This document shows, piece by piece, positions 1,739 to 6,082 of a stretch of 9,877 bases of DNA. Within the stretch, counting starts at the first letter, position 1. Each line of letters starts with the position of its first letter. The position numbers and the translations under genes are program-made. The notes below the pieces were generated by a model that made no database searches, was not told the DNA's origin, and saw only the letters and a list, made by a program, of their open reading frames with translations. The DNA is from a virus (taxonomy: Duplodnaviria; Heunggongvirae; Uroviricota; Caudoviricetes): IMG/VR virus record IMGVR_UViG_2531839661_000013, positions 1 through 9,877 of that record. One strand, written 5' to 3'.

Positions 1739-1945
1739 ATGGAAGCAATCAAAAAAGTCATCTTTCGCCAGGAAGTAAAAAAACTTATCCACATTAAGGC
1801 AGACAGCACGCTGCAAAGCATGATCAACGCCGGAGAATTCCCGCAGGGTTTTCGTGTCGGTTTGCGCCGTCGCGGATGGTATGAGGAAGACGTAATCGCA
1901 TGGATGAAAGAACGCGAACAAGAAGCGCGCGGAACGACCGCTTAA
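1739..1945 (+). CDS. alpA: AlpA-family phage/satellite transcriptional regulator (MerR-like HTH)
   Basis: 68-aa protein with the AlpA pattern: hydrophobic segment plus HTH (VIFRQEVKKLIHIKADSTLQSMINAGEFPQ), then GxRxxGWxEEDVxAWM. RBS GAGG sits 9 nt upstream. Confidence 0.85.
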   Translation: MEAIKKVIFRQEVKKLIHIKADSTLQSMINAGEFPQGFRVGLRRRGWYEEDVIAWMKEREQEARGTTA

Positions 1946-2900: not shown

Positions 2901-3080
2901 TTATTCTGATTCTTTGGCCTTGCGACGCTGGCGGCGTTTGATTTCGCCGCGCATGGCAGTAACGATAAATTGTGCGTCTGTTTCGTTTTCTTCTTTTACC
3001 AAATTCATTTCGCTTAAAACGTCTAGAGGTACTCTAGCAGTTTTTTGTTGTGACTTGTTGTTGGTTGTACCTGTTGGCAT
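2901..3080 (-). CDS. putative ribbon-helix-helix-like DNA-binding protein (59 aa)
   Basis: Internal ATG of the 107-aa track ORF, preceded by a perfect AAGGAG with 7-nt spacer. Product MPTGTTNNKSQQKTARVPLDVLSEMNLVKEENETDAQFIVTAMRGEIKRRQRRKAKESE has an RHH-like strand-helix-helix pattern and a basic tail. The N-terminal extension in the track would run across the operator dyads. Confidence 0.5.
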   Translation of the reverse strand: MPTGTTNNKSQQKTARVPLDVLSEMNLVKEENETDAQFIVTAMRGEIKRRQRRKAKESE

Positions 3081-3103: not shown

Positions 3104-3207
3104 GGTGTTCAGTATACGGAGAAAAAAAAATAAAAAAAGACTTGAAGTGCAAGTCACCTAAAAGTAACCTAGATTTCAAGGTGACTTGCACCAAAAAACA
3201 ACGCCCC
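3104..3207. promoter_or_regulatory. divergent control region with 13-bp inverted repeats and an A-tract
   Basis: Inverted repeat GTGCAAGTCACCT (3147-3159) / AGGTGACTTGCAC (3179-3191). Nested hairpin GACTTG-AAGTG-CAAGTC (3139-3155). A9-T-A7 tract at 3122-3138. Candidate leftward -10 TATACT (minus strand, 3111-3116). Shared 15-mer AAAAAACAACGCCCC at 3193-3207. Confidence 0.45.
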
Positions 3208-3264
3208 ACAGTGCTGGAACACATGCAGGGCGTCTAACCACAAACACTATAGAGAGGTAAATTT

Positions 3265-3459
3265 ATGGTTGCCGTAAATCATACCCCACGACTAGCACAC
3301 ACACAAACGGCCTTTGTGTGGCGTTTTCTGGCACTGAGTGCCGGAGAATCTCAAATCATCCACGTAACCGCCTGGACGGAACGCGAAGCGCGTAGCCGTT
3401 GCCCGTCCGGTTGTGTCGCTGTATTTGCCGCCCGTATTCGCCAGGGGGTAGGCTTATGA
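3265..3459 (+). CDS. small protein, possibly Icd-like host cell-division inhibitor family
   Basis: 64 aa, RBS GAGAGG 7 nt upstream. Motif AFVWRFLALSAG...VTAWTEREARSR...VAVFAARIR resembles the short Icd-like proteins found upstream of primases in P4-like elements. Family assignment is from memory of the pattern and is not verified. Confidence 0.5.
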   Translation: MVAVNHTPRLAHTQTAFVWRFLALSAGESQIIHVTAWTEREARSRCPSGCVAVFAARIRQGVGL

Positions 3460-3689
3460 GCCAGGAAATCACACTACAACAGGCAGCAGAACGCGCCCAC
3501 CAAATCGAAGTTATTTGCGCACTGGCAGAGGATTACCCTGGCATGATGACCGACAGCGAATCAGGGGCAATCATCGGCTTACTTAAACGCCTTAGCGGTG
3601 AGGTCTGCGTATTCCTGAGCGATGAACAGGAAAGAAGAACGCTTATTTCTAACGAAAAAAAATGCGGAGGGGTACACCATGTGCAATAA
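3456..3689 (+). CDS. hypothetical protein (77 aa)
   Basis: ATG at 3456 overlaps the upstream stop (ATGA). RBS AGGGGG 7 nt upstream. First of a run of translationally coupled genes. Confidence 0.55.
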   Translation: MSQEITLQQAAERAHQIEVICALAEDYPGMMTDSESGAIIGLLKRLSGEVCVFLSDEQERRTLISNEKKCGGVHHVQ

Positions 3690-3939
3690 AACCACACCGG
3701 ACGCAGCCGCCGAAGCCATCAAAACGCTGATGCACGCGCTGATTGATATTTCTGTTATCGCGGACAGGGCACATAAGCACGCCACCAGCGAAACAGAATA
3801 TGCCGGGGCTTTCGTTCCTCACTCACTGGCTGTTATGCAATTTAGTGCTGATATGGCACTGAATGAGGCTAAAACCATCCTGATTACTGATTGTGAAAAT
3901 GGGGGGGGGTTATGCGTGATGATCGTTTTAATTCCCTGA
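3679..3939 (+). CDS. hypothetical protein (86 aa); reading frame crosses a G9 homopolymer
   Basis: ATG 3679 with RBS GGAGGGG. The C-terminus (ENGGGLCVMIVLIP) is translated through the G9 run at 3901-3909, so its 3' end and length depend on the tract length. Confidence 0.45.
   Translation: MCNKTTPDAAAEAIKTLMHALIDISVIADRAHKHATSETEYAGAFVPHSLAVMQFSADMALNEAKTILITDCENGGGLCVMIVLIP
3901..3909. repeat. G9 homopolymeric tract at a gene junction
   Basis: Nine consecutive G directly seen at 3901-3909. The run serves as the Shine-Dalgarno for the ATG at 3912 and lies inside the 3' end of the preceding ORF. Confidence 0.9.
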
Positions 3940-4145
3940 AACAAGAATTTTCCGGCGTTCCTGATGATGCGGCTGATGCGCTTTCGTCAATGCCAGAACT
4001 TATTAGAGCGGCTTTTTTCTTACTTTCCACGAAAGAATATAAATCAACGGGACTTGATGTACTGAATATCGCCGCCGATTATGCGGAATATGTGGCAGAG
4101 GCGCGTTACAGAAGAAAATTTCCTGAGGATGTAAGCCATGCGTGA
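3912..4145 (+). CDS. hypothetical protein (77 aa)
   Basis: ATG 3912 is two nt downstream of the G-run. Acidic, helical-looking sequence with no recognisable motif. Confidence 0.5.
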   Translation: MRDDRFNSLKQEFSGVPDDAADALSSMPELIRAAFFLLSTKEYKSTGLDVLNIAADYAEYVAEARYRRKFPEDVSHA

Positions 4146-4371
4146 TATTTACATTGAAACAATAGACCGCGCATTTAGTGCCCTTGCTTACGCTGAAGGT
4201 ATGTACGAAATATTGCAAATGTGGCTGGAAACATTTGACGATAATGAGCGTGATGTAAAGAAGGCGCGGATTATTAAATCACTGATAACTCTCCTTGAAC
4301 CTGTAATAACAGAGTTGCAGGAAATAGACTTATTGCACGACAGATATAACGAACAGCACACCGGAGAATAA
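4138..4371 (+). CDS. hypothetical protein (77 aa)
   Basis: Start overlaps the upstream stop by 8 nt. Acidic helical protein. Confidence 0.55.
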   Translation: MRDIYIETIDRAFSALAYAEGMYEILQMWLETFDDNERDVKKARIIKSLITLLEPVITELQEIDLLHDRYNEQHTGE

Positions 4372-4376
4372 AAATA

Positions 4377-4676
4377 ATGAAACTTAAATATTCTGGCTTA
4401 ACTGCCAGTGGCAACACTCACCCTAAATTTACGCGCGGTGATATTTACCGCGACCAGTACGGCGGCACGGTAATGATTAAGGGCGTGGCGGGACGGTGCG
4501 TAACTTACCGCCGTGAAGGTTACGAATATGATTGCGTGATGCCTGTTTATCAGTTCCGGCGTGATTTTTCTCTGGTACAGACCGCGCCGCATAACGTGCC
4601 CACCAGCAACGCCAGGGCACGGGCAAACATCCAGAAGCTGAAAACCATGATTAACGGATTCAGGAGTAAAAAATGA
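4377..4676 (+). CDS. hypothetical protein (99 aa)
   Basis: RBS GGAG upstream. Its stop overlaps the primase ATG (ATGA at 4673-4676). Confidence 0.55.
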   Translation: MKLKYSGLTASGNTHPKFTRGDIYRDQYGGTVMIKGVAGRCVTYRREGYEYDCVMPVYQFRRDFSLVQTAPHNVPTSNARARANIQKLKTMINGFRSKK

Positions 4677-6082
4677 AACTGGCACCGAACGTAAAACTAT
4701 TACCGAAAGATAAATACACCGATGCGATTATTTTTGCGGGTATTGATGCTCACTCATTCGCAGAGCATTACATCATTGCACAGGCCAAAAAAGCAGGCGA
4801 TCCAGTCCCTCCCGTTTATCTGGGGCGTTATCAGTTAAGCGAACTGGATAACCTCCAGATTGTTGATGATGGGCGATACAGGGCGACGGTGATACGCGCC
4901 GGAAATATTGAAGAGCCGCAGCTGTTAACCATCGCCACGAAACTGGCGATCGCCGGAGTCCAGGAGGCGCGGCTACTTTCTGAAAATTTCGAATTGCTGG
5001 AGGAATGGAGCGACCAGCTTCCACGGCTTAGGGAGGCATGGGAACGCGGGGAAAGCCTGGTCATGAAAAAAATCCCCCAGCGAAAAACCACGCTACCGAT
5101 GAGCGTTGGATCTACCGGATACGACACACAGCTTGATTACGTGGTAAAGGGGATTATTCCGGCATCGTCGCTTTGCAGCATATACGGGGCGAGCGGTTCC
5201 TATAAATCATTCCTTGCCGGATCGTGGGCGTGTCACGTTTCCACGGGCCGCCAGTGGGGAGGCCGCAGGGTGGCGCATGGCGCTGTTCTCTATGTGGTTG
5301 GTGAAGGCGGTATCGGCGTTCCGCGTCGTGTAAAAGCCTGGGAGGTTGTGCACGATGAGCAGGTGAAAAATCTGTATCTGGTAAACCGTCCCATCTTTCC
5401 GGCGGTCCCGCTTGATGTTGATGAAATGGTTATCGCTGCCCGTCAGGTGGAGCGGGAAACGGGTAAACCTGTACGCATGATTATTCTGGATACGCTGGCG
5501 CGTTGCTTTGGTGGCAATGATGAAAATGATTCCCGTGATATGGGGGCATTTATCCGTGGTTGTGACGAACTGAAACGACGCACAGGGGCTACGGTGCTGG
5601 TGGTTCACCATTCCGGCAAGGATGAGACGAAAGGCGCGCGTGGTTCCAGTGCATTTCGTGCATCACTGGACGCTGAATACCGGATACGCAGGGAGGACGC
5701 AGGAAGCGAAGCGCTGGTTATCTCATGCACCAAAATGAAGGACGCGGAGGAACTCAAAGAAGCCGCATATGACTTACGCGTGGTGGAGCTGTTTACCGAC
5801 GCTGACGGGGAGTTAATCACGTCGCTGGTGGTGGTGGATAAGCCGCGTCCTCCCGTTGAACTGGAGCGCATCGAAGAGGCTGGCAACAAGACGGAGAATC
5901 ATGCTGCGCTATGGGGATGTATCCGGTCACGCACACAGCACGGCGACAAGTGCACGATCCCGCTGTTACGTGACGATATGAAAAAGCTGGGGTACGAAAT
6001 GAAAAACTTCAGCCGCTGGCTACGCAAGCTGGAAAAAGACGCCGTTATTTATATCGACGGTGATGATGTAGGCCCTCTGTAA
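4673..6082 (+). CDS. satellite replication protein: RecA-fold ATPase (RepA/DnaB-like), primase/helicase-like
   Basis: 469 aa. P-loop YGASGSYKSF at 5183-5212 (variant Walker A, GxxGxYKS). Walker B-like hhhhD (MIILDTLA) and downstream VLVVHHSGKDE...GSSAF, typical of RepA-like replicative ATPases. RBS AGGAG 6 nt upstream. An iteron array follows immediately. Confidence 0.8.
   Translation: MKLAPNVKLLPKDKYTDAIIFAGIDAHSFAEHYIIAQAKKAGDPVPPVYLGRYQLSELDNLQIVDDGRYRATVIRAGNIEEPQLLTIATKLAIAGVQEARLLSENFELLEEWSDQLPRLREAWERGESLVMKKIPQRKTTLPMSVGSTGYDTQLDYVVKGIIPASSLCSIYGASGSYKSFLAGSWACHVSTGRQWGGRRVAHGAVLYVVGEGGIGVPRRVKAWEVVHDEQVKNLYLVNRPIFPAVPLDVDEMVIAARQVERETGKPVRMIILDTLARCFGGNDENDSRDMGAFIRGCDELKRRTGATVLVVHHSGKDETKGARGSSAFRASLDAEYRIRREDAGSEALVISCTKMKDAEELKEAAYDLRVVELFTDADGELITSLVVVDKPRPPVELERIEEAGNKTENHAALWGCIRSRTQHGDKCTIPLLRDDMKKLGYEMKNFSRWLRKLEKDAVIYIDGDDVGPL

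Follow-up and report, generated by a model that had tools for sequence, protein, structure and literature searches.

An Icd-led, coupled early operon in an Escherichia coli phage satellite and a predicted antisense RNA across its translation start

Introduction

The phage-inducible chromosomal islands (PICIs) of Escherichia coli and their capsid-forming variants (cf-PICIs), such as EcCICFT073, EcCIED1a, EcCIEDL933, EcCIMP1 and the OI-51/CP-933C island, share an integrase, an AlpA-type helix-turn-helix (HTH) regulator, small genes, a replicase and a PerC-family gene, have a size of about 10-15 kb and are inserted at a transfer RNA (tRNA) gene or another fixed attachment site. In the characterised PICIs, AlpA is the helper-induced master activator, and helper induction of alpA is the only control of Gram-negative PICIs described in the two accounts consulted, which do not characterise the small early genes (PMC11773190; bioRxiv 10.1101/2022.09.08.507074). 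Here, a block of six small coupled genes at positions 3265-4676 of the IMG/VR virus record IMGVR_UViG_2531839661_000013 was analysed. The whole stretch of 9,877 nt, hereafter the window, covers nearly a whole island, and all positions are counted within it unless a related locus is named.

Several other described systems resemble parts of this block. In the immI region of phages P1 and P7 (c4, icd, ant1/2), an Icd-family open reading frame (ORF) leads a coupled operon through an ATGA junction, with an antisense RNA acting on its ribosome site; in the P7 record the icd stop codon and the ant1 start share an ATGA, and icd and ant are given there as targets of the C4 antisense RNA. Riedel and co-workers reportedly described, in 1993, the mechanism by which the immI antisense RNA targets the ribosome binding site. 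The left (early) operon of satellite P4 has the order of regulator, Icd-like region under RNA immunity, small ORFs and replicase. SymR of the SymR/SymE pair (RF01809) is an opposite-strand RNA of about 77-80 nt with two hairpins, lying across the Shine-Dalgarno (SD) sequence and the start of a potentially toxic gene. RgdR (ECs1581), encoded just upstream of the replicase of the satellite-like island OI-51 of O157:H7, activates LEE1 in the enterocyte effacement locus (LEE), represses motility and binds DNA weakly (PMC3378721; PMC10877973). Finally, contingency loci, such as the poly-G tract of Klebsiella rmpA and the C-terminal switching of Helicobacter canadensis (PMC2823697), carry homopolymers whose length changes the reading frame among close relatives.

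Overall, the block is a further copy of a widespread, annotated and functionally unstudied module of a known satellite lineage, namely the shared early module of E. coli PICI/cf-PICI satellites, carried here by an island of about 10 kb at tRNA-Pro. The best overall explanation, slightly favoured on the evidence below, is an RNA-gated, Icd-led coupled early operon.

Results and discussion

A coupled operon led by an Icd homologue

Six plus-strand ORFs of 64, 77, 86, 77, 77 and 99 amino acids (aa) span positions 3265-4676 and are followed by a seventh gene from 4673. Their tight packing, the overlaps by ATGA at positions 3456 and 4673 and the one of 8 nt at 4138 (ATGCGTGA) had been pointed out in a preliminary description of this DNA, and all of these were borne out. 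A RefSeq locus 99.9% identical to the window has all six annotated as coding sequences (CDSs), and each of them matches a PHROG family at E-values from 1e-28 to 1e-49. In order, the junctions measure −4, −11, −28, −8, +5 and −4 nt, those not yet mentioned being overlaps of 11 nt at 3679 and of 28 nt at 3912, and a gap of 5 nt at 4372-4376. When junction spacing was scored over 80 related loci, including those with different flanking alleles, the distances proved to be conserved: ORF1 to ORF2 was −4 and ORF2 to ORF3 was −11 in 17/17 loci each, and where ORF2 is absent ORF1 joins ORF3 at −11 (37 loci) or −8 (8 loci). ORF4 and ORF5 are joined at −8 (55 loci) or +1 (12 loci), ORF5 and ORF6 at +5 in 67/67, and ORF6 is coupled to the replicase gene by ATGA (−4) in 76/76 scorable loci, whatever the type of replicase. 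Stop and start codons that overlap or abut are conserved across alleles, as is typical of translational coupling, and the dependence of downstream on upstream translation is predicted from this geometry.

The plausible ribosome binding sites claimed for all genes were likewise found, with SD/anti-SD duplex energies at the seven starts ranging from −6.6 to −11.1 kcal/mol compared to a mean of −3.3 for the 219 ATGs of the window, which places these starts within the top 1-16% of window ATGs. Diverged homologue pairs gave dN/dS ratios of about 0.1-0.3 (about 0.2 for ORF1, 0.1-0.25 for ORF4 at high divergence and about 0.15-0.3 for ORF5), the ORF2 pairs being too similar to judge; such ratios point to purifying selection. 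No paralogy among ORF1-6 was detected by hhalign with all families compared against each other. The reality of the genes and their family and lineage assignment are held with high confidence.

The first cistron, ORF1 (3265..3459, plus strand; 64 aa), is a true homologue of P1/P7 Icd as judged from its sequence, as the preliminary description had suspected. Its residues 17-60 match NF033153 with 64.8 bits (cut-off 25) and E 5e-18, while P7 Icd itself scores 52.7 bits; the two proteins share 43% identity over 42 aa (pairwise E 3e-7) and the pattern FxWRF...TExEARS..P.G...AR. A tblastn search with ORF1 over all phage records did not by itself reach P1/P7. The ATGA overlap of ORF1 with ORF2 has the geometry of the P7 icd/ant1 junction, although the downstream genes of the island are not antirepressor homologues. 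Inhibition of cell division by ORF1 is predicted from the Icd homology. Because the chain is translationally coupled from the Icd homologue to the helicase, control of first-cistron translation would likely control the whole of it.

Within ORF1, codons 12-19 (3300-3320, plus strand) form a terminator-like sense-strand hairpin, CACACAAACGGCCTTTGTGTG, followed by GCGTTTTCTG; in a second allele group of ORF1 this place is taken by another hairpin (CCCGC..GCGGG). Immediately ahead of the hairpin, the CACACACAAAC stretch is also the end point of the truncated icd 5' stubs in the duplicated cassettes of the related locus L002 (5578 and 6256). This region could be an attenuator or a recombination joint.

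A predicted antisense RNA across the ORF1 start

On the minus strand, a predicted cis-antisense RNA of about 80 nt (3191..3271) overlaps both the SD (3252-3257) and the ATG (3265) of ORF1. Its parts are a 10-bp 5' hairpin (3270-3236) with CCUCUC, complementary to the ORF1 SD, in its loop, a G+C-rich terminator hairpin of 15 bp (3234-3200) and a U-tail (3199-3191). A candidate antisense promoter (3278..3306, minus strand) consists of a −35 box TTGTGT (3306-3301), a 17-nt spacer and a −10 box TATGAT (3283-3278), and the antisense segment (81 nt) begins about 7 nt after the −10 box. The minus strand folds with −30.4 kcal/mol (z −4.4) compared to −19.6 kcal/mol (z −2.5) for the plus strand, and the many G-U pairs of the element become A-C mismatches on the plus strand.

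The element is conserved. In 25/25 distinct variants from related loci the −10 box reads TATGAT, TATAAT or TATGCT, and the design of two hairpins plus U-tail is likewise present in 25/25, despite two groups with unrelated 5' hairpins and different ORF1 N-termini. A covariance model built from 14 variants found 78 copies in about 70 loci, all of them on the minus strand. In the resulting alignment 97.5% of cells were paired, compensatory changes occurred in 10/19 pairs and 0/500 shuffles were as good, with slid controls paired at about 40%; an independent MAFFT/RNAalifold result agrees with this structure. From these features the antisense RNA is probably made, and the further step, that it gates the operon, may apply but is put a little below an even chance.

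Among Rfam families the best match was SymR, at 25.9 bits compared to a gathering threshold of 61 (E 0.18), and the element does not belong to this family. The likeness to SymR/SymE lies in the size of the opposite-strand RNA, in its two hairpins and in its spanning both SD and start of a gene with toxic potential; the score, however, is far below gathering, and ORF1 is unrelated to SymE. The C4/P4-CI antisense RNA (RF01695) had no match in the window at E <= 1. As opposed to P1/P7 immI, the island in the window thus lacks C4, and the predicted RNA is encoded in cis on the opposite strand instead of being processed from the same strand. A literature search found no small RNA (sRNA) described in OI-51/CP-933C, a weak negative and not proof of absence.

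The switch region is adjoined by a divergent minus-strand gene of the YlcI/YnfO family (2901..3080; NF041551, E 2e-16; annotated in RefSeq), a ribbon-helix-helix (RHH)-like gene. The motif could have been the mere leader or attenuator of this RHH gene, an explanation weakened by two observations: the O157:H7 motif, located on the Icd-like start, has no RHH gene as a neighbour, and the additional copies in L002 cover duplicated 5' stubs of icd-like ORFs. For the same reasons, its constant association is with the Icd-like translation start. In L002 the unit of RHH gene, antisense-RNA motif and icd 5' stub occurs as a tandem triplication upstream of the operon (5267-7010), which suggests recombination-driven accumulation of switch modules. 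The divergent intergenic region from the YlcI/YnfO gene to ORF1 also holds a perfect 13-nt inverted repeat (3147-3159 / 3179-3191; arms GTGCAAGTCACCT and AGGTGACTTGCAC, 19 nt between them), a candidate operator for the AlpA or the RHH protein.

C4 and IsrK-like RNAs in relatives and the comparison with P4

Although the window has no C4, relatives of the island carry true C4 RNA before an Icd-like ORF, as in immI. It scored 71.5 bits in L048 (gathering 45) and 77.6 bits in L002, and was found in two further loci. In L048, L055 and L005, the place of ORF2 is taken by a segment resembling a C4 target, by a C4 RNA and by a second Icd-like ORF that is joined at −11 to ORF3, and the ORF1 of the window looks like the product of a deletion between two such icd repeats. 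A 185-aa ORF of L002, annotated as 'ash' or 'long Icd-like', is read across an IsrK-like RNA (66 bits) and the C4 RNA (77.6 bits). The long CDSs of this kind (L002 7003-7560; L048 2590-2860; L086 7675-8268) are therefore flagged as probable annotation artefacts of an RNA immunity cassette; the L086 segment had no Rfam match. Since relatives carry C4 and IsrK-like RNAs before Icd-like ORFs, the Icd-family ORFs of these satellites would thus recurrently lead coupled operons under RNA gating, in the manner of P1 immI.

The preliminary description had placed the block where P4 carries its helper-manipulating genes. The synteny stood: a P4-type satellite at ECOR15 is annotated AlpA / Icd-like / small ORF / primase (supplement of bioRxiv 10.1101/2023.04.06.535777). 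The element itself is not P4-like in content, as homologues of psu, delta, sid, epsilon and the alpha primase were not found in Pfam, PHROG and NCBIfam scans or among RefSeq products, orf151 is also missing, and the capsid strategy differs because this island encodes its own capsid protein. It is conceivable that the small proteins act, like P4 epsilon or delta, as helper-manipulating factors that derepress or trans-activate a helper prophage. Their place between an AlpA/Vis-type regulator and the replicase is that of the P4 early genes, P4-type satellites carry an Icd-like ORF there, some relatives have an 'ash family' annotation at the operon start, and the rapid allele turnover described below fits helper-specific interactions. 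The proteins show, however, no sequence or profile similarity to P4 products, the 'ash/long Icd-like' ORFs are probably not proteins at all (see above), and the characterised Gram-negative PICIs are induced via AlpA and not by helper derepression (PMC11773190; bioRxiv 10.1101/2022.09.08.507074). This explanation is considered unlikely.

ORF2-5 are exchangeable orphans

ORF2 (3456..3689, plus strand; 77 aa; phrog_1478, E 3e-28) is optional, being present in 17/82 related loci; elsewhere its slot is empty or holds another small gene or the cassette of C4 RNA and second icd. ORF3 (3679..3939, plus strand; 86 aa in the G9 state, see below) matches phrog_5146 and the N-terminal half of phrog_2512. 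Only its residues 1-77 are the conserved part, the last nine being an out-of-frame reading of the ORF4 5' end, and its alleles in relatives fall near 90% and near 50% identity, with an unrelated allele of 137 aa in addition. ORF4 (3912..4145, plus strand; 77 aa) matches phrog_24341 and the C-terminal half of phrog_2512. ORF5 (4138..4371, plus strand; 77 aa; phrog_2196, E 3e-33) is 66-100% identical in the 82 related loci or absent (15 loci).

Scans of the six proteins against Pfam, NCBIfam, PHROGs and PADLOC gave names for ORF1 (Icd) and ORF6 (DUF4222) only. The view that five of the six products have no recognisable motif was therefore right for ORF2-5 and wrong for ORF6. ORF2-5 had no Pfam, NCBIfam, PADLOC or significant PDB sequence match and no homologue of known function, their named matches among the best 120 listed being all from Escherichia (for ORF5, all Escherichia hypothetical proteins among the best 120 of 421). 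PDB sequence and profile searches with ORF1, ORF2, ORF5, the fused ORF3-4 profile and the replicase returned nothing significant, and PADLOC defence models gave 0 matches for ORF1-6 and the replicase. An exhaustive search with the ORF3-4 profile found only 63 clusters among 1.84 billion representative proteins, none of them with a known domain; since the longer matches carried no Pfam domain, there is no Rosetta-stone fusion among them. Structure prediction with AlphaFold2 gave an all-helical model of fused ORF3-4 at low confidence (predicted local distance difference test, pLDDT, 60), too weak for a fold search, with two long helices in the ORF3 part also at low confidence. The remote-homology and structural checks proposed earlier thus named ORF1 and ORF6 and left ORF2-5 with no informative match, and the contrary outcome then envisaged, that these are ordinary satellite housekeeping proteins of known function, did not materialise in the searches.

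Relatives lose or replace ORF2-5 while keeping ORF1, ORF6 and the replicase, with no co-variation with the replicase type. The extreme case is a minimal operon in E. albertii consisting of the Icd-like gene, about 230 bp, DUF4222 and Rep; because of this reduced operon and the constant ORF6-Rep coupling, ORF1, ORF6 and Rep are regarded as the core. The turnover of the ORF2-5 cassettes with kept junctions is as would be expected for accessory genes facing variable partners, and the earlier reading of helper or host interference is plausible for them. A role of ORF2-5 in conflict with helper or host is nonetheless put forward tentatively. In the related operon of ECOR61, transposon insertions in an Icd-like gene and two overlapping neighbouring small genes suppress death triggered by a phage protein, and the probable effector was considered to be the Icd-like protein (bioRxiv 10.1101/2023.04.06.535777); these data, together with the turnover, would fit such a role.

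The same ECOR61 locus raises the further possibility that the Icd-led block serves as a module for abortive infection or superinfection exclusion, which senses a phage protein and stops the cell via the Icd-like effector. There, an Icd-like gene with linked genes including a primase causes growth arrest upon expression of phage orf24, with suppressors in the Icd-like and the two small genes, and EcCIMP1 adds to superinfection immunity. Nevertheless, no PADLOC model matches the six proteins, the arrest may simply be satellite induction given that the last gene of the chain is the replicase of the satellite itself, and the reconstituted ECOR61 effect was described as muted (bioRxiv 10.1101/2023.04.06.535777). 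A dedicated defence module is accordingly rated even less probable than helper manipulation of the P4 type.

Near the end of ORF2, a run of eight A (3655-3662) is A7 in one locus and A8 in the other 16. In one database protein, P0113 (224 aa), ORF2, ORF3 and ORF4 are fused, which would agree with A7 combined with G7 in the tract described next.

A length-polymorphic poly-G tract at the ORF3/ORF4 junction

The poly-G tract (3901..3909, plus strand), G9 in the window, ends two bases before the ORF4 ATG, sets the frame of ORF3 and serves as the SD of ORF4, forming the strongest SD duplex of the operon (−11.1 kcal/mol). In related loci with the same flanks its length is G7 (17), G8 (23), G9 (9), G10 (3) or G11 (2). 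With G8 or G11 there are two genes with the ATGCGTGA overlap, with G7 or G10 ORF3 and ORF4 are fused into a protein of 154/155 aa of phrog_2512, of which many are known from E. coli, and with G9 ORF3 gains its 9-residue out-of-frame tail and the 28-nt overlap. Altogether, 78 scorable junctions comprised 40 split with the 8-nt overlap, 23 fused, 12 split with the 28-nt overlap and 3 split with a 2-nt gap.

It might be argued that these differences are homopolymer sequencing or assembly errors and that the split and fused states are not real. Homopolymers are error-prone on some platforms, and the window differs from its two closest matches by a single G of the tract and nothing else; a difference of one G with identical flanks also separates it from L001. 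However, control runs in the same loci keep their length, A8, which lies 240 nt upstream, in 16/17 and T6 in 59/59. Each of about 14 sampled, independent complete O157:H7 genomes has G7 and one fused CDS, while O55:H7 is G8, and in complete genomes the inferred tract length agrees with the annotation of one or two CDSs. Interrupted tracts (GGGGTGGG, GGGGGTGG) retain the 8-nt frame, and the unrelated 137-aa ORF3 allele also ends in a variable run of G6-G10 ahead of the same ATG. Sequencing error is thus a very improbable explanation, and the polymorphism is real and lineage-consistent. It arises among close relatives and changes the reading frame, as in phase-variable simple-sequence loci: tract length differs in 3/15 pairs with identical 600-nt flanks and in 11/12 pairs with 1-2 flank mismatches.

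Like the contingency loci of Klebsiella and Helicobacter canadensis, the island thus carries a coding, frame-changing tract (G7-G11). It differs from them in toggling between split and fused proteins and an alternative tail instead of an ON/OFF state, and in the stability of G7 in the O157:H7 clone. Adaptive switching is possible. As no other SD of the operon is as strong as the one it provides for ORF4, the tract may otherwise persist as a ribosome site, with ORF3 frame changes being largely tolerated. For GGGGGGGG-UUAUGCGUGA, a +1 frameshift of the prfB type was weighed but discarded in view of the poor re-pairing from GCG to CGU. A literature search found no report of poly-G tracts in PICIs, which is not proof of absence.

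ORF6 and the RepA-family helicase

ORF6 (4377..4676, plus strand; 99 aa; MKLKYSGLTASGNTHPKFTRGD...) belongs to the RgdR/DUF4222 family, with PF13973 at E 2e-23 and an R-G-D motif at residues 20-22. It resembles RgdR in length, domain, motif and place just upstream of the replicase of a satellite-like island; many of its carrier strains lack LEE. Orthologues of RgdR have been reported in the CFT073 and ED1a islands (PMC3378721). Effects of ORF6 on LEE and motility are accordingly predicted by homology. A profile search of genome contigs with DUF4222 returned only Shigella and E. albertii. The AlphaFold2 model (pLDDT 77, core >90) shows a confident five-stranded SH3-like barrel with a C-terminal helix. 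A Foldseek search with it found generic SH3/KOW/Tudor barrels, none at E <= 1e-3, the best and non-significant ones being Spt5 KOW domains.

The last gene of the chain (4673..6082, plus strand; 469 aa) had been taken for a primase, which did not hold. It carries an AAA_25 domain (PF13481, E 1.6e-43, residues 151-318) as its only Pfam match and no primase catalytic domain, its RefSeq name is 'helicase RepA family protein', and it has a weak phrog_864 match (E 0.022). Primase-family genes fill the helicase slot in some relatives. Directly after its stop codon, in the 190 nt at 6083-6272, AAAGTGAGG occurs six times, four times exactly and twice with a single mismatch, and it is absent from the rest of the window; four of these copies fall within a 27-nt direct repeat (6077-6103 / 6245-6271). 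This cluster is likely an iteron-type replication origin, judging from its repeats and position.

ORF2-6 could instead be ordinary replication accessory proteins of the RepA helicase, such as a loader, an origin-binding or an SSB (single-strand binding)-like protein. The stoichiometric coupling into the helicase gene, the invariant ORF6-Rep junction with any Rep type, the iterons just downstream of rep, and the nucleic-acid-binding-type barrel of ORF6, whose homologue RgdR binds DNA weakly (PMC3378721), favour this explanation. It is at odds with the loss or replacement of ORF2-5 where ORF1, ORF6 and Rep are kept, independently of the Rep type, and with the lack of resemblance of ORF2-5 to any replication protein in Pfam, PHROG and NCBIfam. 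Such a function for the whole set is rated improbable, about on a par with P4-type helper manipulation.

Gene order, site and lineage of the island

In E. coli strain 10, the window sequence sits between tRNA-Pro (next to yejM) and yejO. The island starts with the integrase, a small HTH gene at the AlpA position, three annotated minus-strand small genes and the operon described here, followed by a 91-aa gene, a PerC-family gene, a ClpP-protease/major-capsid fusion and a 93-aa gene. The AlpA-like gene (1739..1945, plus strand), named 'helix-turn-helix transcriptional regulator' in RefSeq, occupies the canonical position after int and matches PF05930 below threshold (E 0.003; 17.8 bits, cut-off 21). 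Two of the minus-strand genes are RHH-like (the YlcI/YnfO-family gene and one with a weak Arc match), and the third has no match.

The same early block is combined in relatives with helicase- or primase-type replicases and with various late modules: in L002 a complete head module of the cf-PICI type, with capsid, protease, portal, closure, connector and HNH genes, and in OI-51 of O157:H7 (L086) capsid, decoration and TerS genes. An equation of OI-51 with EcCIEDL933 was rejected, since OI-51 has only the latter three whereas EcCIEDL933 is described with portal, protease and connectors. The region was matched in 1455/5426 complete E. coli genomes. Based on this occurrence and on the joining of one early block to varied late modules, the island is assigned to the PICI/cf-PICI lineage. 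Moreover, it has the features of Gram-negative PICIs, namely int, an AlpA-type regulator, a replicase, a size of about 10-15 kb, site-specific insertion and no lysis or tail genes, and it shares with the E. coli islands an identical block of Icd-like gene, small ORFs, DUF4222 and RepA, elsewhere joined to the head module or the OI-51 late genes. It differs from them in its late module. The 629-aa ClpP-protease/major-capsid fusion (7453-9342; PF25209 and PF00574) is the only structural gene, followed by a single 93-aa gene (9596-9877) before the island ends, and membership in the cf-PICIs proper is therefore not assigned. The island may be a minimal capsid-encoding type of satellite, or a decayed one.

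A minus-strand ORF of 75 aa (MTNNTLLPIQDTQTQEDEII...; 2616-2843), not annotated in RefSeq, may be a missed gene; L002 has two tandem copies of it (5667-5894 and 6345-6572) with few changes, each paired with an RHH gene. The PerC-family gene (6532-6804; PF06069, E 1e-43) and ORF6 occur together in one island, and homologues of both modulate LEE: Pch/PerC and RgdR are LEE modulators in enterohaemorrhagic E. coli (EHEC), and the PerC-like protein of EcCIMP1 represses LEE1. A 107-nt direct repeat (79% identity; 6811-6917 / 9348-9454) containing GCCGCCTTTTTTGCGGGTCCTCCTGG directly follows both the PerC-family gene and the gene for the ClpP/capsid fusion; it could perhaps be a terminator, a packaging or a regulatory site.

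Proposed control of the operon and its significance

According to the slightly favoured explanation, the six ORFs would be the promoter-proximal part of an early operon for regulation and replication, a single translationally coupled chain from the Icd homologue to the RepA-type helicase. Its control would most likely be RNA-based, by a small constitutive minus-strand RNA perfectly complementary to the SD and start codon of ORF1. In the resting island this RNA would silence the potentially toxic Icd-like leader together with the coupled genes. Helper-triggered activation by AlpA, by analogy with the characterised Gram-negative PICIs, would raise sense transcription and out-titrate the antisense RNA. 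ORF1 would then arrest host division, and ORF6, with its nucleic-acid-binding-type barrel, would act with the replication and regulation core, ORF6 and Rep working at the downstream iteron region; re-tuning of host LEE and motility genes, known from EHEC, would be a side effect of ORF6. ORF2-5 may be exchangeable all-helical accessory cassettes, most likely tuning the interaction with particular helpers or hosts, with the hypermutable poly-G toggling ORF3/ORF4 between split and fused.

Several points weigh against this explanation. The antisense RNA is a prediction, as are its promoter and its effect, and the structure counts come from an alignment fitted to the covariance model; the candidate −35 box matches the consensus at 3/6 positions, and the promoter was not reported by a strict consensus scan, nor did a consensus scan of the window identify a plus-strand promoter. 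The AlpA-like gene falls short of the Pfam threshold. Coupling may be partial, as every downstream gene is preceded by a good SD of its own. Since G7 is uniform in the sampled O157:H7 genomes, the tract is not highly unstable at this length and its variation may be nearly neutral. Since ORF2-5 have neither an informative homologue nor a confident fold, the role proposed for them is drawn from their evolutionary behaviour only. Moreover, the related loci were retrieved with ORF4, which biases its apparent constancy and the presence/absence statistics.

The farthest-reaching version, a so far undescribed RNA immunity layer in E. coli PICIs, formed by the cis-antisense sRNA and in some islands C4 as well, along with a clone-level poly-G contingency switch, is proposed only tentatively and regarded as rather unlikely in its entirety. 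In it, the RNA would gate the Icd-family leader and, by coupling, all of the early operon with its replicase, while the switch would turn two small proteins into one fusion or alter the C-terminus of the first and so diversify how the satellite interacts with helpers or hosts. Such islands are present in roughly a quarter of complete E. coli genomes, O157:H7 included, and RgdR in O157:H7 already ties satellite carriage to virulence regulation. An RNA gate on the Icd-led operon, if true, would tie the PICIs mechanistically to P1 immI and to P4 immunity.

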